Assembly: GCA_041665345.1 (NCBI GenBank)
Contig: JBAYJA010000003.1
Coordinates: 1 to 39,201, forward strand
Source of the DNA: Patescibacteria group bacterium
GTDB taxonomy: Bacteria; Patescibacteriota; Patescibacteriia; PEXW01
Direction: 5' to 3'
Length of the DNA: 39,201 bases
A model generated the notes under the pieces. That model did no database searches, had not been told where the DNA came from, and was given only the letters and a program-made list of their open reading frames with translations. The first letter of the stretch is position 1. Every line of letters starts with the position of its first letter. The position numbers were made by a program, and so were the translations under genes. This document shows positions 1,961-34,183 of the stretch, in pieces.

Positions 1961-2872
1961 ATGGAGGGTTTTTCTTCACGTTCACCACACGTTCCTATGC
2001 AGAAGATTCGCAAAGCAATTATCCCCGCGGCTGGCCTTGGCACGCGTTTTTTGCCGGCAACCAAAGCCATGCCCAAGGAAATGCTGCCTATTGTTGATAA
2101 ACCCATCATCCAGTACGTCGTGGAGGAAGCGGTCGCCTCTGGCATTGAAGACGTCATTATTGTTACCAGCTCAAACAAACGTTCGTTGGAAGACCATTTT
2201 GACTATCCCTACGAAATTGAAAAGAAGTTGGAAGAAGCGGGGAAAAGCGAACAAGCAGAAGAGCTCCGGCGCATTTCCCGCATGGCCAACTTCATTTACA
2301 TTCGCCAGCGTGGCGCCTACGGCAACGCCTCTCCAGTACTAACGGCAAAACACCTGGTGCGGGGTGAACCGTTTGCGGTGCTGTGGGGCGATGAATTTAT
2401 TCATGCCAATCCCCCACGCCTGAAGCAAATGGTGGACGTCTACGAGAAGTATGGCAAGTCCGTCATAAGTGCCGTCCGCATTCCCGAACCTGCGGATGTG
2501 TCGAAGTACGGCATTGCAGATGTTGAACCAGTAGAAGATGCGGTTTTTCGGATAAAGCAGATTGTCGAAAAGCCAAAACCCGAAGAAGCACCATCGAACT
2601 TAGCCGCGCATGGGGCATACATTCTCACACCCGAGATCTTCACCCACCTGGGCGCCTTGCAGCCTGGTAAGGGTGGCGAGCTGTGGCTCGTTGACGCTAT
2701 TAATGCGCTTATGGCAGTTGACGATGTCTACGCCAAAGAAATTGTGGGTGGCAACTATTACGACACGGGAAATAAGTTTGACTACCTTCGTGCGAATATT
2801 GAATTTGCCCTGGAACGCCCGGATTTAAAGGACAAACTCATGACCTACCTTCGCCTGCGCGTGCAAAAATAA
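1961..2872 (+). CDS. galU: UTP--glucose-1-phosphate uridylyltransferase
   Basis: Canonical GalU N-terminal core KAIIPAAGLGTRFLPATKAMPKEMLPIVDKP and full-length match to the GalU nucleotidyltransferase fold. A perfect TATAAT (1945-1950) lies 10 nt before ATG 1961, suggesting a leaderless start. The in-frame ATG 1997 (MQKIRKA...) matches the N-terminus of homologs better and is an alternative start. Confidence 0.9.
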   Translation: MEGFSSRSPHVPMQKIRKAIIPAAGLGTRFLPATKAMPKEMLPIVDKPIIQYVVEEAVASGIEDVIIVTSSNKRSLEDHFDYPYEIEKKLEEAGKSEQAEELRRISRMANFIYIRQRGAYGNASPVLTAKHLVRGEPFAVLWGDEFIHANPPRLKQMVDVYEKYGKSVISAVRIPEPADVSKYGIADVEPVEDAVFRIKQIVEKPKPEEAPSNLAAHGAYILTPEIFTHLGALQPGKGGELWLVDAINALMAVDDVYAKEIVGGNYYDTGNKFDYLRANIEFALERPDLKDKLMTYLRLRVQK

Positions 2873-2874
2873 GT

Positions 2875-4278
2875 ATGGATGATTTCAAAAAACGCATGGT
2901 ATTGCTTGGCGGTCTCCTAGGCCTTGTCATCGTGCTCATTATTGGCTACCAAATCTTTCAACGCTCACGAACCGGGGCAGTAGATTGCTCTTCGTCACCG
3001 GTGAAGCGAGTGGAGCTTTCCTGGTGGGGACACCTGGGTGAGGATCAAGCTCAAGCGTTCATTAACGCATACACCAGCCGCCGGCCCTACGTTACCATTA
3101 CCTACCGCAAATTGAGCGAGACGGACAGTGACCAGCAACTCATTGAGGCCTGGGCACGCGGAACCGGTCCGGACATCTACAGCGTGAAGAATGAGCAACT
3201 ACGGTACTTCACCGCATCAGGTTTGGTGACTCCCATGCCTGCCACCACCACCAGCTACACGTACACGGTGAAAAAAGTCTGGGGCATTAAAGAGGAGTTG
3301 AGCGTGTGCAAGCAAACCAAACCTCTGCCAACGTTAGAGTCATTGAAGAGCACCTTCGTTGCTGGAGCCGTGGAAGATATGGCGAAGAACGGGCAAATTG
3401 TTGGCTACCCGCTGAACTTCGACAGCGTGGCTATGTTCTACAACCAGAAGATGCTTGATGATGCGGGCATCCTCACCCCGCCCAGAACGTGGGTAGACTT
3501 TGCGGAGAAGGTGGTACCCAAGCTCACCCTGGAAGATGCGAGCGGCAATCTCACTCGTTCCGGTGCGGCCATGGGTCGGGGGACGAACGTGCTTCGGAAC
3601 CCGGAAATCGTCGCTGGGCTGCTCCAGCAGTACAATGTGCCACTGACTGATGCAACGGGCACGCAAGTGGCCTTTGGCAGCGGTACCAATGCACAAGCCG
3701 TCCTCACCTTGGCAGCAAGCTTCGGTATGCCCACCAAACGAAATTACAGCTGGAACGCCACTTTCCCTGAATCACTTGAGGCTCTGGCACAGGGCAAAGC
3801 CGCCGTGGCCTTTGGCACGCGTGAAGACTACCAAAAAGTGGTAAACCAAACCACCGGCACGGATATCCGCGTGGCTCCCTTCCCCCAAGCTGCTGCCAAC
3901 GGCACCACGTACGTGGCCAACTACTGGCTGGAAACAGTTGCCCGCGCTGCCAAAGACCCAAATGTGGCCTGGGACTTCCTCCGCACGATCGCTGACCCAA
4001 CGCAAGCAAAAATCATCACCGATACGGACACTCCGGCTGCCCGAACTTTAGTGCAGACTGCACGAGGCACAGAAGAGGAGAATCTCTCCATTGCCCAGGT
4101 CTTCGCGCGCCAAGCTGCAACTGCAAAGCCGTGGTACACGGGTGTCAATGCAACCAAGGGCCGCGAGGCGCTGAACACGCTCATTGACACTATTGGCGAT
4201 CAGAAGGAACCAATTGCCCAAGCAATTGAACGCGCCCAAGCACTCTTCCAAATCTCGCTGCGTATACCTGGCCGATGA
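2875..4278 (+). CDS. extracellular solute-binding protein (ABC transporter SBP family 1-like) with N-terminal membrane anchor
   Basis: N-terminal hydrophobic helix LLGGLLGLVIVLIIGY followed by a ~430-aa soluble domain with sugar-SBP-like composition (many aromatic/Gly/Thr residues, GYPLNFDSVAMFYNQKML). No permease or ATPase gene is adjacent. Confidence 0.65.
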   Translation: MDDFKKRMVLLGGLLGLVIVLIIGYQIFQRSRTGAVDCSSSPVKRVELSWWGHLGEDQAQAFINAYTSRRPYVTITYRKLSETDSDQQLIEAWARGTGPDIYSVKNEQLRYFTASGLVTPMPATTTSYTYTVKKVWGIKEELSVCKQTKPLPTLESLKSTFVAGAVEDMAKNGQIVGYPLNFDSVAMFYNQKMLDDAGILTPPRTWVDFAEKVVPKLTLEDASGNLTRSGAAMGRGTNVLRNPEIVAGLLQQYNVPLTDATGTQVAFGSGTNAQAVLTLAASFGMPTKRNYSWNATFPESLEALAQGKAAVAFGTREDYQKVVNQTTGTDIRVAPFPQAAANGTTYVANYWLETVARAAKDPNVAWDFLRTIADPTQAKIITDTDTPAARTLVQTARGTEEENLSIAQVFARQAATAKPWYTGVNATKGREALNTLIDTIGDQKEPIAQAIERAQALFQISLRIPGR

Positions 4279-5072
4279 AACGTTTTCTTCTCACTCTTAC
4301 AATTGCACTGAGCGCACTGCTTGTCTTTCCGGCTACAAGCAATGCGGCCAACCTCCCCCCAATTATTCCTGGGTGTGACCAAACCCAGTACACCGTATCA
4401 GGCACCAATGGAAATAAGGAAACGATCCCCCCTGGAACAATCATCGATTCGTCGCTGTACGGCACGGACGCATTCCCCTTAACGACCGTAACGGTTACTG
4501 GCTACTCGCTGAGTCGTGACTGCCAACTCACAGACTTCTTACAAGTGTTCATCAACCTCTACTCCTGGGGCTTGTACATCATCTCGGTTCTGGCACTGGT
4601 CTTCATGTTCGTGGGCGGTGGGACGTTGCTCTTTGCCGCTGGCAGTGAAGAGCGAGTACGCACAGGGAAAACAGTGCTAAAAAATACCATACTTGGTCTC
4701 CTGATTGCCCTGAGTAGTTGGATCATTGTGAACTTGGCGCTCGTCGCTATTCTCCCGGACACGGAAGAAAATCGCAAAGACGGCGTTGCGCATATCATTA
4801 AGAACCAACCATGGTTCAAGGTGGAAAATGATGCGCCCGCGTGTCAACCGAATGTTTCTCCAACCTATGGTTGCAAAAGCCAAACGGTGCGCGACTACCA
4901 AACAAAGCTTTCCAGCAAGCGTTGCTTCCCAAGTCCAAATGGAGAAAATATCACCAGTATTTTTGACAACAACACCATGGCTGCGTGGCTGAATTTACAA
5001 GGGGTAAACAAGGTGGTTCCGCCAACCAACCGATTAGAAGATCCGGATAATTACTCCGTCTCCTGCTTGTAA
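4275..5072 (+). CDS. pilin-like membrane protein (TrbC/VirB2-type T4SS pilin-like core) with signal peptide and Cys-containing C-terminal extension
   Basis: Signal peptide (...PATSNA); core of two TM helices flanking GGGTLLFAAGSEERVRTGKTVLKN, resembling the two downstream small pilin-like ORFs; start overlaps the SBP stop by 4 nt (ATGA). Confidence 0.55.
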   Translation: MKRFLLTLTIALSALLVFPATSNAANLPPIIPGCDQTQYTVSGTNGNKETIPPGTIIDSSLYGTDAFPLTTVTVTGYSLSRDCQLTDFLQVFINLYSWGLYIISVLALVFMFVGGGTLLFAAGSEERVRTGKTVLKNTILGLLIALSSWIIVNLALVAILPDTEENRKDGVAHIIKNQPWFKVENDAPACQPNVSPTYGCKSQTVRDYQTKLSSKRCFPSPNGENITSIFDNNTMAAWLNLQGVNKVVPPTNRLEDPDNYSVSCL

Positions 5073-5094
5073 TTTTTTTAACTACCTTCAGCGT

Positions 5095-5427
5095 ATGCGC
5101 ATCCTACAATCTCTTAAACTCAGTCTCATCGCCTTCGCCCTGCCCCTCACCACACGCGCGGCAGAATTGACCAATCCCTTAGGCGTGGATGACGCCAAGG
5201 AGTTCGTGGTTCGCGTGCTCCGCTACTCCTTGGGCCTTTTGGGTGTGGTCGCGCTCATTATGATCCTCTACGGTGGTTTCCTCATGCTCACGTCCGCGGG
5301 GAGCGCAGACCAAATTAAGAAAGCGAAAGGAACCATCATCTGGGCTGCAGTTGGCATTGCGGTCATTCTGCTCAGCTGGACTATCCTCCAGTATATTTTC
5401 CAAACTTTGAACGAGGTGGCAAGCTAA
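5095..5427 (+). CDS. TrbC/VirB2-like (T4SS-type) pilin-like protein, paralog 2
   Basis: 110 aa. Signal peptide, then motif LLGVVALIMILYGGFLMLTSAGSADQIKKAKGTIIWAAVGIAVILLSW (two TM helices with a short basic loop), typical of VirB2/TrbC-family pilins abundant in CPR genomes. Confidence 0.65.
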   Translation: MRILQSLKLSLIAFALPLTTRAAELTNPLGVDDAKEFVVRVLRYSLGLLGVVALIMILYGGFLMLTSAGSADQIKKAKGTIIWAAVGIAVILLSWTILQYIFQTLNEVAS

Positions 5428-5537
5428 ATTCCTGGACGAAAGAGCTTGTAAAGTGGTATAGTAGCGCTGCTCTCGTCAATGTGCTGACCAAAGGAACATT
5501 CAAGTACCTGTATTAATCGAAAGGGGGTGCAAGTAAA

Positions 5538-5894
5538 ATGAAACTCAACCGCAAACTTTTGGCAGGCGCCATCTCCGTCGGCGTCCTCGCCCTTCCCTTC
5601 GCTGCTTCAGCTATAACGATTGAAAACGTCGGTGGCACGCTGACCCTCGGTTCCGCTGATTTGAAGCAGACTGTCCTGAACATTATTACCTTTGTCTTGG
5701 GCCTCCTCGGGCTCATCGCCGTCATCATGATTCTCTACGGCGGCTTCATCTGGCTCACGGCCGGTGGCAACGAAGACAAAGTGTCTTCTGCAAAACGGAT
5801 TATCTCCTCAGCCATCGTTGGCTTGGTAGTCATCCTGATCTCCTGGGCAATCGTGAACTTCGTCGTGAAGAGCACGGTCAACGTTACCGCCTAG
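5538..5894 (+). CDS. TrbC/VirB2-like (T4SS-type) pilin-like protein, paralog 3
   Basis: 118 aa. Signal peptide; LLGLIAVIMILYGGFIWLTAGGNEDKVSSAKRIISSAIVGLVVILISW is clearly paralogous to 5095..5427. SD AAGGGGGTG precedes the ATG. Confidence 0.65.
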   Translation: MKLNRKLLAGAISVGVLALPFAASAITIENVGGTLTLGSADLKQTVLNIITFVLGLLGLIAVIMILYGGFIWLTAGGNEDKVSSAKRIISSAIVGLVVILISWAIVNFVVKSTVNVTA

Positions 5895-5923
5895 TAATCA
5901 ACATTCGTGAACAAACAAACCAG

Positions 5924-5950
5924 CCGTTCCACACCCGTGGGACGGTTTTG
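5924..5950 (+). terminator. rho-independent terminator after the pilin-like gene triplet
   Basis: Stem CCGTTCC(5924-5930)/GGGACGG(5939-5945) with one G-U pair, 8-nt loop, TTTT 5946-5949. Confidence 0.45.
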
Positions 5951-6030
5951 GGATAAAGGAAAAAATAGGGTTTTGGTGTAGCGGCGAGTGGAGTTCATGG
6001 GTGGGGGTGGGGAAGTGTTTTATTAGTCAG

Positions 6031-6114
6031 CCATACCCTCTACCCATACCTTCCTACTATACTCGCTGCCACACCCAAACCTTCTACCTCTCCAATACGG
6101 TATACTACCCGCAT
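6031..6114 (+). promoter_or_regulatory. conserved C-rich upstream element, copy A (shared promoter/leader module abutting an ATG with no SD)
   Basis: ...CCTCTACCCATACC...ATACTCGCTGCCACACCCAAACCTTCTACCTCTCCAATACGGTATACTACCCGCAT|ATG. Near-identical element in inverted orientation at 14943-15035 and a shorter copy at 31035-31097. Contains TATACT (-10-like) 8 nt before the ATG. Confidence 0.6.
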
Positions 6115-8019
6115 ATGCGCACCCGTATCGCTCTCTCCTTCCTTGGTCTTATTGGACTTGCTGTGCTTTGCTGGACGCTCCTGTTAGCAAACGCAAAACT
6201 CCACGCTGGCGTAACGAATGCACTGGATCTTGGTATTTACACCCAGGTGGCATGGCTATCTGGACATGGACATATTTTTGGTTTTACCATCCACCCCCAC
6301 CTCTACCTGGGTGACCATGTTGAATTTTTGTTCGTACTTGCTGCTCTCCCCTTCCGGCTGTTCCCCTGGCCTCTGACACTCGTTGCGCTGCAAGGATTGG
6401 CAGTCGTGGGTGCAGCATTTGCGCTCTACACCTTCTGCTTGCGTGTGGGATTAGCTACCAAGAGTAGCTTGGTTTGGGCAAGCATTTTCCTTCTCAACCC
6501 CTTCACGCTCAACGCGCTTGTTTTCGAGTTCCACGCATTGCTCTTTGCATTACCGTTCGTCTTTCTCGCAGCAATTGCCTACCAGAAAAAAACCTACAAT
6601 ACTTTTTGGCTATGGTTAATCGTCGTCCTCCTTGCGCGGGAAGATGCCAGCATTTTTGTGGCTAGCTTTGCCGTGCTGGGTCTGCTGGAGCGTCGCTCAC
6701 TCCGCTGGTGGCTGTGGCCAGGAATCGTTGCGGTCCTTTGGTTCTTTGGTACCTCACTACTCGCCGGGGCAATCAACGGTGAAGGGTACAAATTCCTGAG
6801 CCTGCTTTCGGGCGAGAGCAGCGCTGGTGGGTCACTTCGTAATATTCTGTTAGTGTTCAACCTTGGCAATGTCCTAGTGCTCATTGCGCTCCTCATAGGA
6901 ATGGTTGGCCTGCCTCTGCTCGCCTGGCGCTGGGCAGTGACGCTGCTCGTACCGTTCTTCGCCCTTGGTTTGGCTGGGTTGCAGGGAGGAGACCTGATTC
7001 TCCAAACCCACTACGCCGTGTTCTTCTTACCTATGCTGTTCTGCAGTGCGGTACTTGGGTGGCACTCCTTCACCTCCCGCCCTCCAAGCTGGGCACATAC
7101 CCTGGGTGAACACCTGCGTCCACTCAGTTGGATAACGCTCGGCGTCGTTTCGGTGTACGGTCTACTAACCTTCGGCCCAACCATTGGGGCAATCCAAGCC
7201 TGGCGAGCTATCACCCCGGCGCAGCAGGCCAAAGGCGCGGCAATGCAAAGTTTGCGCAATGCAACTGCCCCATCCGCGAGCGTCCTGGCTGGCTATGGCA
7301 CGCTGCCGCTGTTCAGCGCAAGGGCGAATATCTACGCCAGCCACTACGCTTTCCTGGGCAAACGGCAGTACAGTGATCAAGACTATCCCCTACCCAGCAA
7401 ACTTGACCTGGCTGTGCTGGATGCTGAAGACTTTGTCACCTACCAAGTCCAGTTTGCAAAAAAACCTTCCCGTGCCACTGACTACCTGACTGGCGTCAAA
7501 CGCTTTACCGACCTGCTTGCCGCACACCAGCTCCGGCTCACCAGCATTGATGACACGCTGCTGACGTTTACCACCCAGGGAACTGACCTCTTCCCACAGG
7601 TGGTAACGCAACGCACACGCGAGCCACTCAGCGGGGTGGAATTCCTCATCCAAACGCCCGCGCCTGCAATCCAAATCGCGGATGGCAAAACAACCCTACC
7701 CATCATCGCCCAAGTTGGAAACCCCTCACTAGCAAATCTCCAACTTGAACTTCGCTGGTTCAATGCTTCTCACCAGCTGCTGGAAACCCGCTACCTGCCG
7801 CTCGGGTACGGATTGTACCCAACTTCTGCCTGGAAAAATACTGACGAAATAACCACCAACTTCACACTCGTGGTCCCAGATGAAGCCGCCTCTGGCGAAC
7901 TGCGGGCGATCATCCCCAGCGGCCACCTGGCTCTCAATGGTTGGCGTGCAGCTGAAGTCAAACTCGACAAAGATACCCAGCAGATTGGTTTGCCAGTAAC
8001 GGTGGAGGTAGAACGTTAA
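6115..8019 (+). CDS. polytopic membrane protein, DUF2079-like (putative membrane glycosyltransferase) with C-terminal extracytoplasmic domain
   Basis: About 10 predicted TM helices in the first ~330 aa; ALDLGIYTQVAW...HPHLYLGDHVEF loop motif reminiscent of DUF2079; C-terminal ~300 aa soluble. The 5' part of the ORF-track call (6001-6114) is the noncoding conserved element. Confidence 0.55.
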   Translation: MRTRIALSFLGLIGLAVLCWTLLLANAKLHAGVTNALDLGIYTQVAWLSGHGHIFGFTIHPHLYLGDHVEFLFVLAALPFRLFPWPLTLVALQGLAVVGAAFALYTFCLRVGLATKSSLVWASIFLLNPFTLNALVFEFHALLFALPFVFLAAIAYQKKTYNTFWLWLIVVLLAREDASIFVASFAVLGLLERRSLRWWLWPGIVAVLWFFGTSLLAGAINGEGYKFLSLLSGESSAGGSLRNILLVFNLGNVLVLIALLIGMVGLPLLAWRWAVTLLVPFFALGLAGLQGGDLILQTHYAVFFLPMLFCSAVLGWHSFTSRPPSWAHTLGEHLRPLSWITLGVVSVYGLLTFGPTIGAIQAWRAITPAQQAKGAAMQSLRNATAPSASVLAGYGTLPLFSARANIYASHYAFLGKRQYSDQDYPLPSKLDLAVLDAEDFVTYQVQFAKKPSRATDYLTGVKRFTDLLAAHQLRLTSIDDTLLTFTTQGTDLFPQVVTQRTREPLSGVEFLIQTPAPAIQIADGKTTLPIIAQVGNPSLANLQLELRWFNASHQLLETRYLPLGYGLYPTSAWKNTDEITTNFTLVVPDEAASGELRAIIPSGHLALNGWRAAEVKLDKDTQQIGLPVTVEVER

Positions 8020-9680
8020 GCCGGGGGCAGCACTTCGTACACCTTCGCGCTCGGCGTATCGTGGATCAATTTGAGGTAGGACTTACCCTCTGGGCTAAAT
8101 GGTTCAAACTGTTCTTTTTCTAATTCGGTCCAGAAAAAGTATCGAATTCCTTCTTGCCGAAGAAATGCCTCAGGATTTCCTTCTGGGGTTGTAAAAGTTT
8201 CATACACACCCTTCTGCTTTTCAAAATACCCAAGTGTTTGGTGCCCATGCGCAAAGTATGTGGGCAGCAGAGTTCGTCCACTGAGAATGTACGACGTCGT
8301 TGATACGGAAAGGGTAATGCCAGGCGGCTGCGTCTTCAGCCAATCCATGGTTTCCAGGGTGGTTTTTGGTTGCATGTAGAGCGACCATTCCCCGGGTGTG
8401 TATACATACGAACGACTTATATCCCGCGCCATGAGGTAAAGCGGCGAGTAGCACAGCAAGAGAATGGCAAGCCATACTGTACCCGAACGCCACACAATTT
8501 TCAGTGGACTGTTCTGTGTGCGCGCAATAATTTGCTCCCATAGAAAAACGAGCGCGAAACTTGCCAAAATTGCAAAAACGATATGGAGACCATTGGTAAA
8601 CCGGCGCTGGATTTGCACAGGCACGTAGAGGAGGAACGCGTGCATGGGTGCCCAGGCGAGCAGAAAGAGCATGGGCAAAGAGCGGGGTAACCGAACAACC
8701 CGTAGCCAACCCCAAACCGCAAAAACCAGGAGGAAGCCATAGCCAATGCAGTAGTTCCAAATGGGTGGCGAAGTGGTGATATTTTGCTTTGCCCAACCAC
8801 CTAAAGCTGGCTCTATCTGGTAAACGGCAATGAAGTACGCGCCAATCCCTGCGGTAACAAGCCCCATGATTGCCAAACGGACAATGGAACGTTTGGCTTT
8901 GGCAATGGAAAATGCTCGATCATAGAGAATGCGAACAAACGGCAAAATAATCAAGACGCAAAAAATGACTGGTAAGTCATACGGGTGGAGAATTCCCAGG
9001 AGTGCCGTGAGGCCAGCAAAAATGAAGTGTGGCACCGTGCCTGGACTTTGCTCATCCCGCACGGCGAAGAGGAAAGTGAGTAAGAGCAGTATTTGAGATA
9101 TGATGAACAGGGGTGAGTGCAGGAGCGTGGTAAAAGTAAAGGCTTCCGAAACCCACATATCCACAGGATTCTTTGTGAGCAATTCTTGCAAACTCGTGAG
9201 GTGCAAAAAGGGAGAAACGTACCCACCCAGCCCCATACCAAAAGCTAAAGCAACAAAAGCAATCCGACGTTGCAGGGATTTCTCAATGAACAAGAGTAAG
9301 GCTTTATACGCAATCCATAGAAAAATACCCGCTAGAAAAATTTTCACGAGGTGAAAAAGTATTGCATTGGGTAGGTGAAAAACACCTGCCAGGAAACCCA
9401 AAATTGCCCAAAGTGGTTGGAAAAAAGCATACCTTTGCGCCTCAGGTGTAAAAACGTTCGTAAAGAACACATGCCCCGTGGTTCGCGCCTGCTCCATCAT
9501 GGAAAAGTAGACGTTCGTGTCCGAGGGAGCCAAAGTGCTGAAACCCATGAAGACATCTCCCTTCCGTAGCCAAAGAGCACCGAGCACAAGCGGCAAGACG
9601 CCTAGGATAATTGCAGCCGTTGCTATCCAAAAAGCAAATGGACGCTCAGCTTTTGGAATCGAGGGGAGAATAGGGTGCAT
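8016..9680 (-). CDS. large polytopic membrane protein, GT-C-fold-like (paralog of 11058..12716)
   Basis: 554 aa, >10 TM helices, C-terminal soluble domain. Strong paralogy to 11058..12716, e.g. FSMMEQARTTGHVFFTNVF..FFQPLWAILG vs LSYIEQARTSGHVFFANVF..FFQPLWAVIG, and C-terminal IRYFFWTELEKEQF vs IRYLFWTEQEKQFF. Confidence 0.6.
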   Translation of the reverse strand: MHPILPSIPKAERPFAFWIATAAIILGVLPLVLGALWLRKGDVFMGFSTLAPSDTNVYFSMMEQARTTGHVFFTNVFTPEAQRYAFFQPLWAILGFLAGVFHLPNAILFHLVKIFLAGIFLWIAYKALLLFIEKSLQRRIAFVALAFGMGLGGYVSPFLHLTSLQELLTKNPVDMWVSEAFTFTTLLHSPLFIISQILLLLTFLFAVRDEQSPGTVPHFIFAGLTALLGILHPYDLPVIFCVLIILPFVRILYDRAFSIAKAKRSIVRLAIMGLVTAGIGAYFIAVYQIEPALGGWAKQNITTSPPIWNYCIGYGFLLVFAVWGWLRVVRLPRSLPMLFLLAWAPMHAFLLYVPVQIQRRFTNGLHIVFAILASFALVFLWEQIIARTQNSPLKIVWRSGTVWLAILLLCYSPLYLMARDISRSYVYTPGEWSLYMQPKTTLETMDWLKTQPPGITLSVSTTSYILSGRTLLPTYFAHGHQTLGYFEKQKGVYETFTTPEGNPEAFLRQEGIRYFFWTELEKEQFEPFSPEGKSYLKLIHDTPSAKVYEVLPPA

Positions 9681-9684
9681 GGGC

Positions 9685-10941
9685 TTAGTACACTGTATAA
9701 ATCATAATGAACCAGCCAACAGTCAGAGCGAATACTGCTCGGTATGCATGTTTCGTCTTCATGAACGGGGTGAGCACAAGCGGCCACGTGAGATACCAAG
9801 GCTGTACCCACTGCAAAGCAAAGCAGATAACGGCGCAGAAAACGTAGAATGCGGCTACGGGTAACTCTAGCCGCCCCTTCCACACCAACCACGTGAGCCA
9901 GCCAATGCACACAATCGCAATGCTCGTCCCAATGACGACAGCGAGCTGCAGCGCTGCATGCAACGGCATATCAGGCTGCACAGTGCGAATAATACCCAAA
10001 AATAGTTTTTGTGGGAAAAAAATCGGATTGACATAAAATTGTCGCCCCATAACCAGGAGACCTTCAAACATCCTTGGTCCAACCCATAGGAGCGCATACA
10101 TCAAAACCAATGCCACGAGGGCAGACCCGCTTGCAAAGAGCAGCTCACGAAATTTCTTTTCACGCGCGTACACTGCAAGAAAGAGTGGACTTAGCACAAC
10201 GGAGATGTGCTTCGTGGCAATGCTTAAACCAAAACTAAGTCCGGAAAAAGCAGAGTTCCCAAATGGTATGAGCGCTAAGAGGATAAGCACGACGAACAGG
10301 CCGTCATTATGCGCATCGCCAATGAGCTCAATGATCAAAATGGGATTAAGGATGACTAGGAGTGCAAGCGTCCGAGGTCGCCATCGTCCTAACAAGGCTG
10401 CGACACTTGCAAACATTGCAACGCCCAGAAATTTGAAAATGAAGAACTGCGTTACTAGTCCAGCGTGCAGTTTTCCAATGAGCACAACAATGCCCATCCA
10501 AAGTGGGCCATATGGCGAAGGGTATGGGCGCCATTGATCCCATACACCGTGCCAAATTGGATTCCCGGGGCCTAAACTTGCTGGGCCTTGGAGGTACGGG
10601 CTGGCATGCTGACTAATTTCAGCATACGCCATGTAGTTGTAGACATCACTTGATTTGGTAAGAAAATTAAGGAAGTACGGAGCAACGGAGAGTGCGAGGA
10701 CGAGAATAACCTGCTGTATGGATGGCGTATACCCGTGCTGCATCCTGTACACTGCCAAAAGGTATGCGCCGACGAGTAGAAGGAGAAAAAAAGCATGCAG
10801 TCCCTCCTGAAGATTCACTGAAAAACCATACCAGATACCCGTCTGTTCAGCAGTAAGGGCAATGCCAGCATGCAAGGCGACGGCAAGAGCAAGCCCAGTG
10901 GGCGTGTATGGAAACAGCGATCCCTTCTTTTGCGTCACCAT
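9685..10941 (-). CDS. polytopic membrane protein, DUF2029/GT87-like (putative polyprenol-P-sugar-dependent glycosyltransferase)
   Basis: 418 aa, about 10 TM helices; first extracytoplasmic loop SDVYNYMAYAEI...GNPIW resembles the D..Y...A...NPY signature of the GT87/DUF2029 family. Confidence 0.45.
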   Translation of the reverse strand: MVTQKKGSLFPYTPTGLALAVALHAGIALTAEQTGIWYGFSVNLQEGLHAFFLLLLVGAYLLAVYRMQHGYTPSIQQVILVLALSVAPYFLNFLTKSSDVYNYMAYAEISQHASPYLQGPASLGPGNPIWHGVWDQWRPYPSPYGPLWMGIVVLIGKLHAGLVTQFFIFKFLGVAMFASVAALLGRWRPRTLALLVILNPILIIELIGDAHNDGLFVVLILLALIPFGNSAFSGLSFGLSIATKHISVVLSPLFLAVYAREKKFRELLFASGSALVALVLMYALLWVGPRMFEGLLVMGRQFYVNPIFFPQKLFLGIIRTVQPDMPLHAALQLAVVIGTSIAIVCIGWLTWLVWKGRLELPVAAFYVFCAVICFALQWVQPWYLTWPLVLTPFMKTKHAYRAVFALTVGWFIMIYTVY

Positions 10942-11057
10942 GGCGATTACAAATATGCAGGTGCAAAAAAATGTAGCAAATACATCATCGTATGATTATG
11001 CAGCTACGACAATGATACCACGCAAAGAATGTAGCGCCCAAAGGAGCGATCACGCCT

Positions 11058-12716
11058 TTACAGGGCATAAATTTCAGTTGTTTGATTTTGAAAAATGAGG
11101 TGCAACCATGGGTAGTCTTGCGGGGAAAATGCTGCAAAAAATTGCTTCTCCTGTTCAGTCCAAAAGAGGTACCGAATGTGGTTTTCCTGAAAAAAAGCTT
11201 TGGCCGTATTCGCGCTTCGGGATCCTGGAAAAGCTACACGTAGTGCTTGGAACTTCTCAGCGTGATTCGGCGTTTGACTTCCATCCGAAATATACGTGGA
11301 TCGCAAGGTTTGGCTCGACAGGACAAAGCTTGTGGTGTCTGCGCTGAGGGTCAGGCCGGGTGCTTGCTGGCGAAGCCAGTGCATAGCATCAAGTGTTGCT
11401 CGGTCAAACTGGTATACCTCCCGTAGTGTCCCTGGCACCGAACCACCCACGAGCGGCTCCACAACAGTAAACCAGGTTGAAGGACACAGCACCCCTGCAA
11501 ACACCATGCCGCCAGTGGTAAGCCACAACGCCAATGGCACGCGCTGCCGCTGTGCCCATTGCCACACTGGCTCCACCGCAAGCCCTACGACGACAGCCAG
11601 CACGATGCTCAGACCATTGAGAAAACGACTTTGTACTTGCGTGGGTGAGTAGCTGAGGACCAGTGCAATGGCCGGCCAAAGCAAAAAAATGGCTTTGGCT
11701 TTTTGAAAAATGTCCCGATGCTTCCACCCTTGCCAGAGCCATAGCGGAATGTACACGCCATAGCTTATGCACACCACAAGGAGTGATGGACTTGGGGTTA
11801 CATTTTGCTGCGCCCAACCCAGAATACTGTGGTCAAGAAGCAGGGCGCTCACAAAGTAAGCTAACGCTGCCGTAGCTGCTAAACAGAGCATCTCCAGCCG
11901 AACGATGCTCTGCTTCCAGCCGGATGTTCGATACACCGGTTCACGGAAGAACCGAAGCAGGCTAACACCACACACGCAGGCAATGAGAATGACGGCATCG
12001 TATGGATGGAGTAACGCAAGCAGCAACGTACCGGCAAAGAAAACTGACCGGGGGACTTGGCCAGGCGATTCTTCGTCGCGCATTGCGAGCGTTACTAAAA
12101 AAACGAGTAGAGCTAACGTGAGAATGAAAAGTGGTGAATGGGCGATGGACTGAAAGACAGTAAACTGCGGCATAGTAATATCCGCCGGCATAAGATTGGC
12201 ACCTGGTGAAAAAATTGTTGGGAGTTGCTGTACAAATGGCAAAAAATAGAGGCCTACTCCTGAGCCAAAAACGCCGAGCGTCGTTGCTACTATCCGACCC
12301 CGGACGGTTGGTAGAAGCAAACCCGTAAATCGGTAAATGGCGAGTACCAACAGTGGGATGGATGCCAGTCGTACGATGTGAAAGACAAGCGCTGGGGCAA
12401 GGTGGAATACCCATGAAAGAAGCCCAATGACCGCCCACAAAGGCTGGAAGAAGCTCTGCGTATGCGGCTCTGCCGCAAAAACGTTTGCAAAAAAGACGTG
12501 GCCGCTGGTTCGCGCCTGCTCAATGTACGAGAGGTAAATACCATTGTCATTGCGTGCGGTTTCACCAAAACCAATGAACACTTTCTCCGGTGGTAACCGG
12601 AGCACACCTACGAGCAATGGAATCCCGGCACAGAGGATTGCTACCAGGCTCAGCGCCCATAAAAACTGCCGCTCCCTTTTTGCAAACGGGGGAAAAAGGC
12701 GTTCCATACAATGCAA
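11058..12716 (-). CDS. large polytopic membrane protein, GT-C-fold-like (paralog of 8016..9680)
   Basis: 552 aa; same architecture and conserved blocks as 8016..9680 (see that entry). Confidence 0.6.
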   Translation of the reverse strand: MHCMERLFPPFAKRERQFLWALSLVAILCAGIPLLVGVLRLPPEKVFIGFGETARNDNGIYLSYIEQARTSGHVFFANVFAAEPHTQSFFQPLWAVIGLLSWVFHLAPALVFHIVRLASIPLLVLAIYRFTGLLLPTVRGRIVATTLGVFGSGVGLYFLPFVQQLPTIFSPGANLMPADITMPQFTVFQSIAHSPLFILTLALLVFLVTLAMRDEESPGQVPRSVFFAGTLLLALLHPYDAVILIACVCGVSLLRFFREPVYRTSGWKQSIVRLEMLCLAATAALAYFVSALLLDHSILGWAQQNVTPSPSLLVVCISYGVYIPLWLWQGWKHRDIFQKAKAIFLLWPAIALVLSYSPTQVQSRFLNGLSIVLAVVVGLAVEPVWQWAQRQRVPLALWLTTGGMVFAGVLCPSTWFTVVEPLVGGSVPGTLREVYQFDRATLDAMHWLRQQAPGLTLSADTTSFVLSSQTLRSTYISDGSQTPNHAEKFQALRVAFPGSRSANTAKAFFQENHIRYLFWTEQEKQFFAAFSPQDYPWLHLIFQNQTTEIYAL

Positions 12717-12731
12717 TGTGTGCTACGAAGC

Positions 12732-13343
12732 CTACCGCTTCTCCAGCAGCAACATGGTCCACGGGATGGGCTGCTTGCCCCGGCGAACAACGAATGATTG
12801 CCCAACGAATCGTCGGAAACCCCACGGGGTCCAGTGGTTGATGTGCCCGGGGGTGTTCCCCCACCCTTTGAGGTACGTTCCCCGTGCCATGTTCATCACT
12901 CGCCACAGCGGCTCATGGGGTACGCTGATGATCGCCCACTTCTTGGTGACTCTAGCGAGTTCAGCCAAGGCTTTTTCTGGCTGCTCCAGGTGCTCCAGTA
13001 CTTCCAGCGCAAAAACCAAATCCACTGAGGCGTCAGGCCGGTTGAGAGCAAAAATGGATTCCACGCTGCAGGTTGCGCTGGGTACCCGCGCTTGGGTTGC
13101 TGTCACCAATTCTGGGGTGATGTCCGATGCTTGCAAGTCAACGTCAGGCAAGAAATGCCGAATGTGCTCGGTGGAAAAGCCTTCACCGCAGCCGACCTCC
13201 AACACACTCTTTAGATCGTTTGGTAATAGTCCCTGCAAAGTTTTGAAAAACCCGCGGAGGAAGTGCCGCATGATTGGGTTCTTAGATTCGTACTTCCCGC
13301 GGAAATCATCCTCCGGCCGATTGATGGGTGGTTGGTATGGCAT
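12732..13343 (-). CDS. class I SAM-dependent methyltransferase
   Basis: Motif I VLEVGCGEGFST, acidic residue after beta-2 (ASDIT), motif IV-like LVFALEVLEHL; 203 aa. Confidence 0.8.
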   Translation of the reverse strand: MPYQPPINRPEDDFRGKYESKNPIMRHFLRGFFKTLQGLLPNDLKSVLEVGCGEGFSTEHIRHFLPDVDLQASDITPELVTATQARVPSATCSVESIFALNRPDASVDLVFALEVLEHLEQPEKALAELARVTKKWAIISVPHEPLWRVMNMARGTYLKGWGNTPGHINHWTPWGFRRFVGQSFVVRRGKQPIPWTMLLLEKR

Positions 13344-13352
13344 ATCCGTACC

Positions 13353-14942
13353 TTACTCTGGATTCTGCCAAGAGTAAATCCACACCTCAGCATCTTCGTA
13401 CGCCAGTTCCACACCCGGCGTCACGCGAACATTCTCGTACATCTCCCGATGATCTTTTTCCACAAAAATCCACTTCGTATTAAAGAGGTCAAAGGCTTCA
13501 GCCAGGTTGTCCTTTTTCTGGCCCAGGGTGGTCTGCGCCCAGGCCCAGTAGCGGGTGACATCTTGGCGGTAGAGGAAGGTTGGATCCAGACCGGCGATGT
13601 ACGCGTTTACCGTGTTGTAGTAGAACAGCACGGGAAAATCATCCCAGTCACTGTGGAAGACCACGTCGCCAGGTTTGGAATGCTCTGCCATCCAGGTGGC
13701 CGAGGCTTGAAAGTGAGTAGCATTTACTCCCGAAGAAAGGTTCTGCACATTGGTGCGCTGATCCCGCGCAACCACGTATGGCACGCTGACCACAATGTAC
13801 AGCGCGAGTAGCCCCACCACAATTTTTCGACGCTGCCACTGCTGCCACACGCTCTCCCAGATGTGTCGCCAATCGCTGGTTTTCAGCACATCACCCAGCG
13901 TCACTGCTGCAGCCAAAGCAATGAACGGCACGGCATACTCCACGTACCGCCTAGACTTTAAGGTGACAACGCTGAAGAGCAGTGCGAGGAGCACCAGGGT
14001 CCACCCTTTGGCCGTCGTTCGTCGCAGGTGCACAATGGCCAGCACCAGCGCCAGTAGGAACGGAATGATGACCACCACATTATTCCCAATGAACTCGGTG
14101 AAGCCGTACGGATACCACTCCCCGCCCACGCCAATGACATTTCGGTAGTTCACCACGCCAATTTGGATAACCTGCTCCCACAGAAAATGAAAAGTGTTTG
14201 GGAAAAAAGGGTTTGCCACCATGCCCACCCCGGCGCCAGCCAAAACGCAGCCAAAGACCTGCAGCGGTCGGTAGTGCAGAAATCCCTGCCAGGTCCACCA
14301 GGGTTTCCTCCCCGCTTCCGCTGCTTCCCGTGCCCAATGCCGTACCAGGTCAACGACTGCGTACGCAAGCAATGACAGCCCGGCTGCCGCAATGAGCACC
14401 AGAAAACCGCCGTAGAGCAAGACGAAGAACCACGCCAGAAAAAATGTCAGCCACCGCTTCCCCCGGAAGATGCACCACAGACCAATGAGGAGTGTGGCCA
14501 GAGACAAGCTGGGCGCTTTGGCCAAACTCATCCGAAAGGTGAACGGCGTTGCGGCCAATAGCACTGCTGCCCAAATCCAGGCGTGGCGTACCCCAAAACT
14601 GCGAACAAACCACACCGCAACTGTCAGTAAGAGCGATGCAAAAACTACGGTCGCCAGTTTGATACCAGCCAGTGGATCCATGAGCCGCACAAAGGGAACC
14701 AGCGCAACATGATACAACCAGTGCTGGTCAATGTAGTGCTCGCCCAGCGTGGTGAAGGGCAACCAGGGCAATTCTCGCACCGCACCCTGCTGGCTGGTCA
14801 GCACCGCGATCCGCGCATGGTAGAAGGAGTCAGGATCGGCAAAGACCGCGCTCCGTTGCATCAGGAAAAAAGCAACGAAGCTCACCACAAACGTACCTAG
14901 GAGCATGAGGAGCGTCGTGTGGCTCCGCCAGTGAATAGTCAT
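13353..14942 (-). CDS. polytopic membrane protein, ArnT/PMT-like GT-C glycosyltransferase candidate
   Basis: 530 aa from ATG 14942 (the ORF-track start 15122 includes the noncoding conserved element). First loop FADPDSFYHARIA resembles the PDE.RYAEI loop motif of ArnT/PMT_2-type GT-C enzymes. About 12 TM helices, C-terminal soluble domain. Confidence 0.5.
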   Translation of the reverse strand: MTIHWRSHTTLLMLLGTFVVSFVAFFLMQRSAVFADPDSFYHARIAVLTSQQGAVRELPWLPFTTLGEHYIDQHWLYHVALVPFVRLMDPLAGIKLATVVFASLLLTVAVWFVRSFGVRHAWIWAAVLLAATPFTFRMSLAKAPSLSLATLLIGLWCIFRGKRWLTFFLAWFFVLLYGGFLVLIAAAGLSLLAYAVVDLVRHWAREAAEAGRKPWWTWQGFLHYRPLQVFGCVLAGAGVGMVANPFFPNTFHFLWEQVIQIGVVNYRNVIGVGGEWYPYGFTEFIGNNVVVIIPFLLALVLAIVHLRRTTAKGWTLVLLALLFSVVTLKSRRYVEYAVPFIALAAAVTLGDVLKTSDWRHIWESVWQQWQRRKIVVGLLALYIVVSVPYVVARDQRTNVQNLSSGVNATHFQASATWMAEHSKPGDVVFHSDWDDFPVLFYYNTVNAYIAGLDPTFLYRQDVTRYWAWAQTTLGQKKDNLAEAFDLFNTKWIFVEKDHREMYENVRVTPGVELAYEDAEVWIYSWQNPE

Positions 14943-15035
14943 GTAGGAAGTATACCGTATTGGAGGGGTGGAGGGTTTGGGTGTGGCAGCGAGTATGGTT
15001 AGAGGGTGGCGGTTTAGGATGGGTAGAGGTACGAG
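14943..15035 (-). promoter_or_regulatory. conserved C-rich upstream element, copy B (inverted relative to copy A)
   Basis: Minus-strand reading: ...CCTCTACCCATCC...CCATACTCGCTGCCACACCCAAACCCTCCACCCCTCCAATACGGTATACTTCCTAC|ATG. About 85% identical to copy A over about 70 nt; abuts ATG 14942 with no SD. Confidence 0.6.
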
Positions 15036-15204
15036 TGAAATACAATACTCCTCCCCTCCTTTCGAAGGAGCCGTCTGCGGCGGGTGCGAGCGAGCACAGC
15101 ACCTTAGGTAGGGGGAGGTCACCCTTACCGAGAAAACAAAATCACGCAGAATAAAAGTCTGGAAAAAACAAAAACATATTCTACTTCCTTCTTCTCAATC
15201 CCCT

Positions 15205-16647: not shown

Positions 16648-19600
16648 ATGGAAATCAAGTCAAAATTTCACTTTTTTCGTCAGAACAACTTCACCTACCT
16701 GGACAGCGCCGCCACAACCCAAGTACCGGATGCGGTGACGCGTGTGGTGGAGCAGTCTTTGCAGTACAAAGGCAACCCGAATCGTAGTGCGCACGCCGTA
16801 GCGGAAAAAAATGAACAGGCGTTGCAAGCCGCCCGGGAGAATATTGCCGGCTTCATTGGCGCCACGGCAGAGGAACTCATCTTCACAAATAACACTACGG
16901 ACAGTATCAACCTTGCGGTGGATGGTATTGCCGACCATGTAAAGCCTGGTGACGAAATTGTCATCGCCGTGTCTGAACATCACTCCAACATGCTGCCCTA
17001 CACCAAGCTGGTAAAGCGTGGGGCGAAAATCCGCATCGTAGGCATCAAAGACGGCGTGGTCAATCCAAACGATGTGCAGAAAGCGCTTACGCCCAAAACC
17101 CGTATCGTGGCCGTGGGACACTGCTCCAATGTCCTCGGGAACATCAACGACGTGGTAGCTATTGGCAAACTCGTTAAAAACCACGACAAGAAAATCTTCT
17201 TCATTGTGGATGGCGCGCAAGCCGTGGCGCACATCCCAGTAGACGTCCAGGCAATGCAGGCGGACTTCTACGCGTTCTCGGGCCACAAAATGTACGGGCC
17301 AGATGGCGTAGGTGGATTGTACATTGCCCGAAAAATCCACCACCTGCTCACTCCGACACGTATGGGTGGCGGCACCGTGCAGAATGTGGCCATCACCTTT
17401 GATAAAACTGGTGATATCATCTCCCCTGACTACTTCCCGTCGCTCATCACGTTGGAAGGTGGCACGCCAAACCTGTCCAACATTCTCGGCCTTTCTCGCG
17501 CCGTCAACTTCATTCGTTCTATTGGCTTCCCAGATATTCAGGCACACGAACGCGGGCTGCTAAAACGTTTGCTGGATGGGTTGGCGACAATTCCTGGGGT
17601 GCAGGTCTTTGGTCCCACCGACCTCCAACAAAAAATTGGCGTCCTCTCTTTTGGTTTGCAAGACACGAACACCAAAGAACTCGGCGAACACCTTGGTCGC
17701 CAAAAGATCTGCATTCGCTACGGCGCACATTGTGCCTTCCCGCTAGCGGAAAAGCTGGGCCAAGAAACCCTGCGCATTAGTCTGGGCGTGTACAACACCG
17801 AAGAAGACATTGACCACGTGCTCAACGAAATGCGATTCTTCTTCGATAAGAAACAAGGGCGCATTACCAACCCCAACCTGGAGCCCCTGCGCAACAAGCT
17901 CTACTACCGCAGCACCCATGTGGTGAATTCCTATGCTGCCCTGGCCGAAAAGCTGCAGCAATCCCTCTACGGCCCACAGGATACGGAAATTATTGTCATG
18001 GGTGGCCACTTCTTGGGCATACCAGACATGCAGGAAAACCGCTTCTGGCCCAGCATTGCAACCATGGTACCCGAGCGCCTGCACGGCCTCATGGATGAGT
18101 TTGGCATGACGAGCTTTCCGCTTTTCACGTGGCGCTTGGCTTGTCGGACGGTTGCGGATTTGAAAGCGCACGGATACCAAGCAAAACTGGCAATTATTGC
18201 CAATGACACAACGGGAATGAATGAACTTCGTAACTCTGAAGCCAACACAACAAAGAAAACCGCTGAGCAATACCGAACTGAGTTACTAGATACTTTTCAA
18301 GAAGACGGTCATTTACCAAATCGCTATAGTGAAATTCTCAAAGAGCACGGATTGCATAAGCGAGATATTCTCAAGAATGGTGACAAATTCGTATTTCAAG
18401 AAACCTTACTCCGAGCCAACTTCAAAAAATTTGTTGATGGTAATAAAAATTTCTTTGATGGCATCATTGCCTACACAAAAAAGGCAGAGGAGAATATCGA
18501 CTTATCAATTAAACTCCTCGATAATCAGGAAATTGCTTCCTGCACGTTTAATACATTTCAATCAAAAACTGGTGGGAAGTTTTGCATTGTTGAATTGTGT
18601 CAATTTATTGCCGAACTCTTTGGTAAACCAGAACTGATTACATTCCCCTATGTATCACAGCGCGTACTGAAACCAAAGGTGACAGCAAATCACAAGATTC
18701 TTTTTGCAATCACGCCCGCGATGTGCGACAACGCTGTGACGCGATCCGCGGAACTCTACACCAAGCTTTTCCTCCAGGAGCAGAGTAAAGGATCATTTAA
18801 ATTCTTCAACTTGCCCCTAGGCCCAAATGCTGAGCGCAGCTTAGCTATGGGCGCAGAACTCAAGTATGTCTCAGACAAAGACAATCTTGAGGTACTTGAT
18901 ATTGAGCATGAGCCCGCATTTCCAGATCTCTGGCGCTTGGCTGAGTACAAGCTCATCTACAATGCTCCTGCCTATGTAACTGAAATGACCGCGCTTTTTG
19001 CGAAGCTGGGCCTCACCAAGAAATCCGCACTGCTGGATACCTGTGTGGGTCCAGGCTTCTTTGCCACTGAGCTGTTGCGGCAAGGTTACAATCTGCATAC
19101 CGCAGACAAGAGTGAAACCATGATGGCACCATTCCGCGCAACCCTGAAAGAGCTTGGTATCAACCACCAGCCCACAGTGAGCACGTGGCTTGATTTGCCA
19201 AAACACTTCGAGGCAAATTCCATGGATATGCTCTTCAACCGTGGGAACACCTTCATCTACGCGGCAGGCGGCTGGCATGAGCGAATCACCGTGGACCGAG
19301 AAAAATCTTTGGCGAAATATTTAGAGACGTTACGCGTCTACTACAGCCTTCTCAAGCCAGGTGGCTACCTCTACGTAGATAAATTCCGTGATGCAGAAAT
19401 CCCAGATAAAAAAGTTGTTGCTCGGCTGTACATTCAGGAGCCTGCGCAGCAAAAAGACGTAGTCTTCTACGTCGAACGCAAACCAGAAGATCACATTCGC
19501 TTTGCGCAAATGCTCTTGCGCGACACCCAAGGCAAAGAGACTGGATTACCAAACATGGCCTATGACTTGAGCGTAGAAGAAATGGAAATGTTGCTACAGA

Positions 19601-30922: not shown

Positions 30923-31034
30923 AACAAGGAACTCGGAACCGAGAACAGAGAACCAGAATGGGAAAAAGCAGGAGTGAACCTCCCCTCTGGTTCCAAGTTC
31001 ATTGTTCTCAGTTCAAAGTTCCCTTCCAAAGTAG

Positions 31035-31097
31035 CCATCCAACCATACCTTTCAACGATACTCGCTGCCACAACCAAACCCTCACCCCTTTGCAACT
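31035..31097 (+). promoter_or_regulatory. conserved C-rich upstream element, copy C (core only)
   Basis: CCATCCAACCATACCTTTCAACGATACTCGCTGCCACAACCAAACCCTCACCCCTTTGCAACT|ATG. Shares the ATACTCGCTGCCACA(C/A)CCAAACC(C/T)TC(T/C/A)ACC core with copies A and B but lacks the CCAATACGGTATACT proximal module; no SD. Confidence 0.5.
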
Positions 31098-33949: not shown

Positions 33950-34183
33950 AAAATTTACTTATTGAGTACATCATGATACTACCTACTGATAGTTTACACT
34001 AAGTTCATACTTGCTAAATTGGAGCCGCCCACCAACAAGGGCAGATGTATACCATTGAATCGTTACCAGAAAAGCAAATGTTAGCCAAAAAGCATCCTAC
34101 TCAATCAGGGCTACAAAATTTAGTGGGTATTTGCCTACAGCTTTACGGCTTATAGCCTTTGGCGTCCTTGCTATACTACCCCC

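Follow-up and report, generated by a model that had tools for sequence, protein, structure and literature searches.

A solute-binding protein gene leads a conserved array of VirB2-like pilin genes in Patescibacteria

What is a gene for a solute-binding protein (SBP), with no permease or ATPase gene beside it, doing at the head of three tandem pilin-like genes? The question is raised by a stretch of 39,201 nucleotides (hereafter the window) from a metagenome-assembled genome (MAG) of the Patescibacteria, or candidate phyla radiation (CPR): assembly GCA_041665345.1, contig JBAYJA010000003.1, positions 1 to 39,201 of the forward strand. Here, the SBP gene follows galU and precedes three genes that we call P1, P2 and P3, the first of which is already annotated as "pilin" by NCBI. 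The explanation that we prefer, at a probability of about one half, is that P1-P3 are paralogous VirB2-like pilins which form the distal part of a conserved galU-SBP-pilin operon, and that this operon specifies a filament on the cell surface, or a module for adhesion, together with a dedicated glycan-binding partner that has no part in transport. An initial annotation, made from the sequence alone, had regarded such orphan pilin arrays as typical of episymbionts of the CPR/Saccharibacteria type; the assignment to Patescibacteria/CPR stands, but the nearest named relatives of the source are Kerfeldbacteria/Parcubacteria-type MAGs, not Saccharibacteria.

The order in which the SBP gene leads the pilin array is conserved and not accidental. 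We fetched 80 loci by SBP alignment from a one-genome-per-species collection, with SBPs that are 26-96% identical, and counted arrays in the 78 non-redundant loci that have at least 600 bp downstream of the SBP. Pilins were called by searching six-frame open reading frames (ORFs) with a locally iterated pilin hidden Markov model; PF18895 confirmed 128 of 132 sampled array ORFs found in this way, and 19 of the 132 also reach TrbC at E<=1e-3. A same-strand pilin array lies within 3 kb downstream of the SBP in all 78 loci (within 500 bp in 70), and the initial annotation's suggestion that the coupling of the SBP to the pilins is meaningful is thus borne out across distant lineages. The gap between SBP and array has a median of about 21 bp, with an exact 4-bp overlap in 13 loci, and the arrays comprise 1-16 genes (median 6). 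When the upstream flank of the same SBPs is used as an internal control, pilin density is 0.68 per kb downstream versus 0.021 per kb upstream. At least 11 named CPR lineages are represented, including Kerfeld-, Kuenen-, Uhr-, Magasanik-, Falkow-, Komeili-, Moran-, Yanofsky-, Harrison- and Doudnabacteria, and SBP homologues at 61, 55, 49, 31 and 27% identity all lead PF18895 arrays even where every other neighbour differs, as do two further distant homologues (27-29% identity). GalU is encoded directly 5' of the SBP in 51 of the 78 loci; in the window it is identified by TIGR01099 (329.4 bits against a cut-off of 326.8) and by Pfam NTP_transferase (E 2.7e-35).

The association also has a boundary. 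Every SBP homologue to an E value of about 1e-25 heads a pilin array, and no permease or ATPase gene was found in any of these SBP-led loci. The next homologue out (P0041, E 4e-12) has two BPD_transp_1 permeases downstream and no pilins. With this homologue as a negative control, we conclude that the SBPs constitute a pilin-associated subfamily derived from CUT1 sugar SBPs. In six Magasanikbacteria-like loci (L038, L039, L042, L045, L047 and L048) an extra long pilin (231-263 amino acids (aa)) is encoded directly upstream of the SBP, with an array of about 10 genes downstream. The patescibacterial cassette is also carried by third-party MAG records (TPA_asm; L008, L012, L016, L019 and many more) titled 'uncultured Gammaproteobacteria bacterium' and, in one case, 'Pseudobdellovibrionaceae', titles that are probably mislabels.

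In the window itself, galU, the SBP gene and P1 are tightly coupled. Only 2 nt separate the galU stop from the SBP start, and the SBP gene, whose stop codon TGA is at 4276-4278, overlaps by 4 bp (ATGA) with P1, whose start codon ATG is at 4275-4277, exactly as the initial annotation had described. The hairpin that follows P3 has a predicted energy of -19.9 kcal/mol (RNAfold, 5895-5960) and is not called by a simple terminator scan (Table 1).

All three small proteins exceed the gathering threshold of the Pfam family T4SS_pilin (PF18895, 26.6 bits), with 32.5 bits for P1, 45.4 for P2 and 45.9 for P3, and for this reason we do not regard the family match as a chance one. The initial annotation had placed three tandem TrbC/VirB2-type genes at 4275-5894; the number of genes and the coordinates proved exact and the relationship to pilins of type IV secretion systems (T4SS) holds, but the classical TrbC/VirB2 family PF04956 is not reached at its threshold of 27.9 bits, the sole match being that of P2 (18.1 bits, E 0.0031). 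The proteins have a common core (..MILYGGF..LT.AG......AK..I..A.VG..VIL.SW) and are otherwise divergent, with identities of 25% between P1 and P2, 29% between P1 and P3 and about 40% between P2 and P3. Their topology includes the two-helix core that had been anticipated: each carries an A-x-A-type signal peptide site, read from the sequence as SNA/A, TRA/A and ASA/I in P1, P2 and P3, followed by two long hydrophobic helices with a short K/R-containing loop between them (from hydropathy and, for P1, an AlphaFold2 (AF2) model). In signal peptide, paired hydrophobic helices and short basic loop they resemble VirB2, TrbC and TraA, the pilins of the T-pilus, the RP4 pilus and the F-pilus. Unlike these, they are encoded outside a T4SS operon in multi-paralogue arrays, include long multi-domain forms, and belong to a monoderm host.

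P1 differs from the other two in its long N- and C-terminal extensions with a Cys-containing tail, features that had been noted from the sequence and are readily located. A signal peptide (aa 1-24) is followed by a beta-rich N-domain (25-88), the VirB2-like hairpin (89-160) and a C-terminal extension (161-265) made up of a disordered linker (161-185) and a C-domain (186-265). The AF2 model, for which database homologues were used, has a predicted local distance difference test score (pLDDT) of 78 and contains a small beta domain at aa 37-79, helices at 85-120 and 125-159, and a confident C-domain. All six cysteines (34, 83, 190, 200, 217 and 264) are predicted to be extracytoplasmic; Cys34 and Cys83 lie in the N-domain, which is predicted to be disulfide-stabilised, and four are in the C-domain. 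To judge from its orthologues, this C-domain is probably a diverged peptidoglycan-binding domain of the PG_binding_1 type: PF01471 is matched by 7 of 10 P1 orthologues (40-80% identical, best E 5.5e-5), a profile of the C-domain gives weak matches in the Protein Data Bank (PDB) to L,D-transpeptidase, SleB and muramoyl-pentapeptide carboxypeptidase, and the domain has the small helical fold of peptidoglycan-binding modules. Both pilin termini are predicted to be outside the cell, as in VirB2 and TraA, and the added domains would therefore be displayed on the surface. A long first pilin is common in other lineages, with a median of 234 aa versus 138 aa, the first being the longer in 56 of 65 loci. 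Among the first pilins of the 80 SBP loci, four carry PG_binding_1 and two an SLT lytic-transglycosylase domain (E<=1e-3). By their domain matches, such long first pilins are pilin cores fused to putative wall-acting modules.

The genes of the cassette evolve at markedly different rates. When orthologous cassettes are compared with that of the window, GalU is 81-90% identical, P3 65-91%, P2 61-66%, the SBP 50-61% and P1 42-50%, so that P3 is the most conserved of the pilin paralogues and P1 the fastest-evolving. In the closest relative (L008) the SBP is 96% identical and P1 just 80%. Synonymous divergence (dS) between L008 and the window is saturated (1.2-2.4, undefined for P1), and rates were therefore compared by non-synonymous divergence (dN) alone. 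The dN of P1 is 0.145, against 0.022 in the SBP, and the changes in P1 are clustered in its exposed domains.

The SBP model (pLDDT 88.5, predicted TM-score 0.83) has the two-lobe class II SBP fold. Its best Foldseek match in the PDB is 2zyo (E 2.7e-22, TMt 0.82), and 5f7v and 4qsd are also matched; these cyclo/maltodextrin-, sucrose-, arabino-oligosaccharide- and maltose-binding proteins of ABC importers align with TM-scores of 0.65-0.82 at 12-19% identity, and homologues of the SBP carry PF13416/PF01547. The protein thus shares its fold with MalE and other CUT1 (cluster B) SBPs; unlike these, it has a transmembrane anchor (aa 4-30) in place of a lipobox, pilin genes in place of permease and ATPase genes, and a beta-hairpin insertion (aa 124-150). 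An N-terminal hydrophobic segment is present in 77 of 80 SBP homologues and a lipobox-like motif in only 7. The insertion, with its Cys145, and Cys38 are specific to the clade of the window; the two cysteines were lost together in one member (P0025), suggesting a disulfide between them, which we consider probable in this clade. In Southlakia epibionticum, a family-5 peptide SBP encoded beside secG (SEML1_0634) is essential by transposon sequencing (PMC10633639 supplement). This gene is apparently also an orphan, as no ABC transporter gene is among the immediate neighbours shown.

The initial annotation had described the SBP as lacking a cognate permease or ATPase and the pilins as lacking VirB4 or VirD4, and both descriptions survive closer inspection. 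Family searches detected no VirB4, VirD4, VirB6, ABC permease or ABC ATPase in the sizeable ORFs of the window, no Walker A motif occurs among its unannotated large ORFs, and the 5.7 kb to its left is likewise free of T4SS and ABC-importer genes. The contig on which NCBI places the identical proteins is 176,635 bp long, and the window corresponds to its positions 129,164-168,364. Six large ORFs of the window have no Pfam match even at E<=1. Two proteins encoded at 32027-36046, a polytopic one of 640 aa and a soluble one of 620 aa, have neither a family match nor a Walker A motif and coincide with a dip in GC content to about 46% at 32-34 kb; the polytopic protein could conceivably be VirB6-like.

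Is the SBP needed wherever such pilins occur? We approached this from the opposite direction, with 80 metagenome loci picked by a P3-like pilin profile; the profile was built from 14 closer sequences and the sample is therefore biased to P3-like arrays. Among the 31 arrays with sufficient upstream sequence, 16 are led by an SBP. Two loci (L141 1933-12782, L142 3648-12677) have the SBP and one pilin about 5-6 kb ahead of a six-pilin array, with a divergent block between them that, in L141, encodes a family 2 glycosyltransferase (GT2), a methyltransferase and two large unannotated proteins. These loci hold the components of the window in another arrangement, which hints at a functional link. The remaining arrays adjoin GT2 genes and homologues of the 589-aa polytopic protein of the window. 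Arrays are thus found in at least two, perhaps three, contexts: VirB6-led, SBP-led and glycosyltransferase-flanked.

How does this locus relate to the pilin arrays already described? When PF18895 and PF04956 were used to search 3,035 genomes of Patescibacteria, 441 arrays of 2-11 pilin genes were obtained, in which paralogue identity averages 25% with a maximum of 54%, and pilin genes proved to be near virB4 in only 1,135 of 1,948 assemblies (Quinonero-Coronel et al. 2025, PMC12102498). In S. epibionticum, a six-gene array in the T4SS cluster is essential (Wang et al. 2023, PMC10633639), PF18895 arrays being required for epibiotic growth (PMC10633639, PMC12857230), and in enriched Patescibacteria the genes for T4SS pilins rank with the most strongly expressed of those whose function is unknown (PMC10936435). 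The window conforms to the published definition of an array (at least two PF18895/PF04956 genes in tandem or one gene apart; PMC12102498), and resembles the published arrays in its tandem, divergent PF18895 paralogues, in its location on a chromosome without a relaxase, in its size of three and in its paralogue identities (25-41%, in line with the published mean). Since tandem VirB2-like arrays were published in 2023 and 2025, the array by itself is of a known kind. The Southlakia array (SEML1_0014-0019) directly follows VirB6 and not an SBP (supplementary table, PMC10633639); unlike it, the array in the window follows galU and an orphan SBP gene, and its leading pilin has a putative peptidoglycan-binding domain. 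In the literature outside subscription journals we found no paper that connects pilin arrays with an SBP, GalU or peptidoglycan binding, and the operon consisting of galU, the SBP gene, a pilin with a predicted peptidoglycan-binding domain and further pilins appears to be an undescribed variant of the pilin array.

Based on these observations, we propose the following mechanism. All four products, the SBP and P1-P3, would be exported by the Sec pathway and, in a monoderm cell, retained at the cytoplasmic membrane, either within it or on its surface. P3 would be the main polymerising subunit of a filament or sheath of the VirB2 type, a role that we assign to it because it is short, highly conserved and equipped with a strong ribosome-binding site and a promoter-like site of its own, and P2 would be a second structural subunit. 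P1 may be a low-copy, specialised subunit whose outward-facing termini display the disulfide-stabilised beta domain and the peptidoglycan-binding domain, and these domains could tether the structure to a cell wall, either the cell's own or that of a host. Translational coupling would cause the SBP to be made in a fixed ratio with P1, and the SBP would serve as a dedicated glycan-binding partner (a receptor, an adhesin or an assembly factor) and not as an importer component. Assembly is presumed to be carried out by VirB4/VirB6 machinery encoded elsewhere in the genome. The weakest step concerns GalU and the neighbouring GT2 and GT-C-like genes, which may supply sugars or attach them to the pilins or the envelope.

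Several observations weigh against this proposal. The window SBP falls below the thresholds of the SBP_bac_1 and SBP_bac_8 families, with only a weak match to NMT1 (16.7 versus 20.5 bits), and the C-domain of P1 in the window is too degenerate to match PF01471 at E<=0.05. Foldseek gives no significant PDB match for the P1 model, the sole pilin being 8dfu at a non-significant E value of 2, and a profile of the pilin core finds no solved pilin among PDB sequences. To our knowledge, a pilus has never been seen for the PF18895 family. About half of the related arrays have no SBP, and therefore the SBP is unneeded for arrays in general. The search for T4SS and permease genes around the array extends only from -10 kb to +33 kb, and a search of limited sensitivity that had no positive control detected no T4SS genes near about 160 array loci. 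The jackhmmer queries in the latter were PrgJ, PcfC, PrgH, PrgI, PrgK, PrgL and an uncharacterised 299-aa ORF of pCF10; their zero matches are a weak result, as FtsK, which is present in the set, was missed too. VirB4 is not among the best 25 families in a Pfam census of the large flanking ORFs, a census in which weak matches could sit lower. Given that no T4SS gene was found near the arrays, we can only assume that they depend on a T4SS, by extension from Southlakia and from what the family is called.

This last point opens the way to explanations in which no T4SS takes part. One of these, which we find doubtful, goes further than our own proposal: SBP-led arrays would be a distinct organelle, separate from the VirB6-linked arrays and possibly T4SS-independent, with the SBP and the peptidoglycan-binding pilin as the active part of a VirB2-type filament for recognising or harvesting host wall glycans, and with GalU and the GT-C proteins coupling it to UDP-glucose metabolism or to filament glycosylation. 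Rather unlikely, in our judgement, is a T4SS-independent membrane device in which oligomers of two-helix PF18895 proteins act with the SBP to capture, take up or sense host saccharides, GalU handling the sugar inside the cell. The strict, translationally coupled adjacency of SBP and pilins, the oligosaccharide-binding fold of the SBP, the co-location of GalU, the failure to match solved pilins, and the loci in which no permease, ABC ATPase or T4SS gene was found are all compatible with such a device; yet it would be without an energy-coupling component, its up to 16 divergent paralogues resemble variable surface subunits and not a transporter, the same family follows VirB6 in the essential T4SS cluster of Southlakia, and half of the arrays have no SBP. 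That the SBP is an ordinary importer component, serving a sugar ABC transporter encoded elsewhere (compare the shared permeases of Gram-positive bacteria) and only sharing a promoter with the pilins, would agree with its nearest folds, those of MalE and cyclodextrin-binding proteins, with the derivation of its family from CUT1 SBPs, and with a permease search confined to -10/+33 kb of the source genome. We consider this quite improbable, since coincidence cannot explain why the order persists in all 78 of 78 loci at identities of 26-55% while the flanking genes change, nor why the overlap is exactly 4 bp in 13 of them, and since array leaders extend to E about 1e-25, permeases appearing first at 4e-12.

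The glycan genes suggest yet another role. Transporter-less SBP-fold proteins are known, as LpqW has such a fold. In Corynebacterineae, this lipoprotein serves the GT-C mannosyltransferase MptB (PMC7261415). By analogy, the SBP might present lipid-linked or oligosaccharide substrates to GT-C enzymes within an envelope-glycan biogenesis module, with GalU and GT2 supplying polyprenyl-phosphate-glucose and the pilins being glycosylated products or scaffolds. The window SBP is like LpqW in having no transporter and in lying near polytopic GT-C-type genes, one neighbour being tagged MptA_B_family; it is unlike LpqW, a peptide-type SBP with no pilin partner, in being of the sugar type and in having one. 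GalU upstream in 51 of 78 loci, DUF2079 and PMT_2/MptA_B-tagged orthologues directly downstream, the interruption of the array in L141 and L142, where GT2, a methyltransferase and polytopic proteins come between the SBP with its first pilin and the remaining pilins, the presence of a comparable block beside seven arrays without a directly adjacent SBP, and the recurrence of Wzx and Wzy_C all accord with the idea, but what invariably accompanies the SBP is the pilin array and no glycosyltransferase, glycosyltransferase genes are variable or absent in many loci, LpqW comes from a different SBP family, and these pilins are not known to have glycosylation sites or to carry glycans. We therefore hold this role, too, to be quite improbable. 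Finally, the family name T4SS pilins might suggest that the array was left behind, or is carried, by a conjugative or mobile element, which is hardly credible here: relaxase, integrase, VirB4 and VirD4 are all missing from the window, the array adjoins genes for housekeeping and for the envelope, the galU-adjacent position is syntenic across lineages, and GC content is steady at 50-57% over 1-12 kb. We rejected this origin for want of an integrase, a relaxase or a GC break at the array.

Table 1. Positions in the window of the genes and signals of the cassette and of the adjoining envelope genes
Feature	Positions	Strand	Basis or remark
galU	1961..2872	+	TIGR01099 and Pfam NTP_transferase; first gene of the conserved cassette
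SBP, membrane-anchored, MalE-fold (CUT1-type), 467 aa	2875..4278	+	AF2/Foldseek and Pfam matches of homologues; leader gene of the array
Pilin 1 (P1), long form, 265 aa	4275..5072	+	PF18895
Pilin 2 (P2), 110 aa, signal peptide and helical hairpin, zero Cys	5095..5427	+	PF18895
Promoter-like site TGGACG-18-TATAGT, extended -10 TG, within the 110-bp P2-P3 gap	5433..5462	+	consensus match only
Shine-Dalgarno sequence GGGGGTG, strong, ahead of P3	5526-5532	+	upstream sequence
Pilin 3 (P3), 118 aa, putative major subunit	5538..5894	+	PF18895
Terminator-like hairpin GCCGUUCCAC/GUGGGACGGU, then UUUUGGG, at the end of the pilin operon	5920..5951	+	RNAfold
DUF2079 polytopic membrane protein	6001..8019	+	PF09852, E 2.1e-31
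Divergent block: four polytopic proteins (554, 418, 552 and 589 aa) and an S-adenosylmethionine (SAM) methyltransferase	8016..15122	-	orthologue tags

The genes beyond the array are concerned with the envelope and with housekeeping: DUF2079, polytopic proteins, GT2 and family 4 glycosyltransferases (GT4), methyltransferases, PBP1, RuvC, YebC and a NifS-like fusion. DUF2079 occupies the same position in six other loci (L001, L002, L005, L009, L011 and L013) and is array-linked in this lineage only; homologues are present in 9 of the loci fetched by SBP and in 9 of those fetched by pilin. The four polytopic proteins of the divergent block each have 10-18 hydrophobic windows above threshold, many of them overlapping, and are probably of the GT-C type: orthologues of the block are tagged PMT_2, GT87/ALG3 and MptA_B_family, while the copies in the window have no Pfam match. 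Two of them, encoded at 8016-9680 and 11058-12716 on the reverse strand, are paralogues (mutual phmmer E about 1e-101; no Pfam match at E<=1), and since their syntenic counterparts are tagged PMT_2 they are likely a pair of divergent GT-C glycosyltransferases. Differently arranged versions of the block recur beside other pilin arrays, arrays without an SBP are flanked by GT2 and by homologues of the 589-aa protein, and Wzx and Wzy_C are recurrent neighbours of array loci; the block is possibly a set of glycosylation partners. The recurrence of GalU, GT2, DUF2079 and PMT_2/MptA_B-tagged neighbours suggests glycosylation of the pilins or of the envelope, which is the least secure part of our proposal. 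In Pseudomonas aeruginosa, pilA is followed by a gene for a polytopic glycosyltransferase, either tfpO/pilO or the GT-C-type tfpW, which uses a lipid-linked sugar. The window is like these loci in that a pilin gene is followed by a polytopic glycosyltransferase-type gene and unlike them in the class of pilin, theirs being type IV pilins and those of the window the unrelated VirB2-like kind.

Further along the window, three GT4 genes are interleaved with a kinase gene of the aminoglycoside phosphotransferase (APH) type at 26786-32030 (+), with a GalT-like uridylyltransferase last, in what looks like a sugar-activation or glycan-assembly cluster. A 1009-aa protein encoded at 16648-19677 (+) has the unusual architecture of a class-V aminotransferase (NifS/IscS-like, PF00266, E 1e-105) with a C-terminal SAM-methyltransferase. 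In two other loci, from the same ENA sample (L171 2236-4699, L172 3263-5455), gyrA is broken up into a run of three or four ORFs, probably by assembly frameshifts.

VirB2-like pilins are the oddest feature of patescibacterial T4SS, as monoderm systems are normally without pilins, and epibiotic growth requires them in the only species that has been tested. That there are at least two kinds of genomic context for arrays, one led by VirB6 and another by an SBP, should change how arrays are catalogued, and 'orphan' SBPs in CPR genomes are probably not to be taken as evidence of sugar import in metabolic reconstructions. The SBP, the C-domain of P1 and GalU provide three clonable experimental handles on whether the proposed filaments recognise host cell walls.

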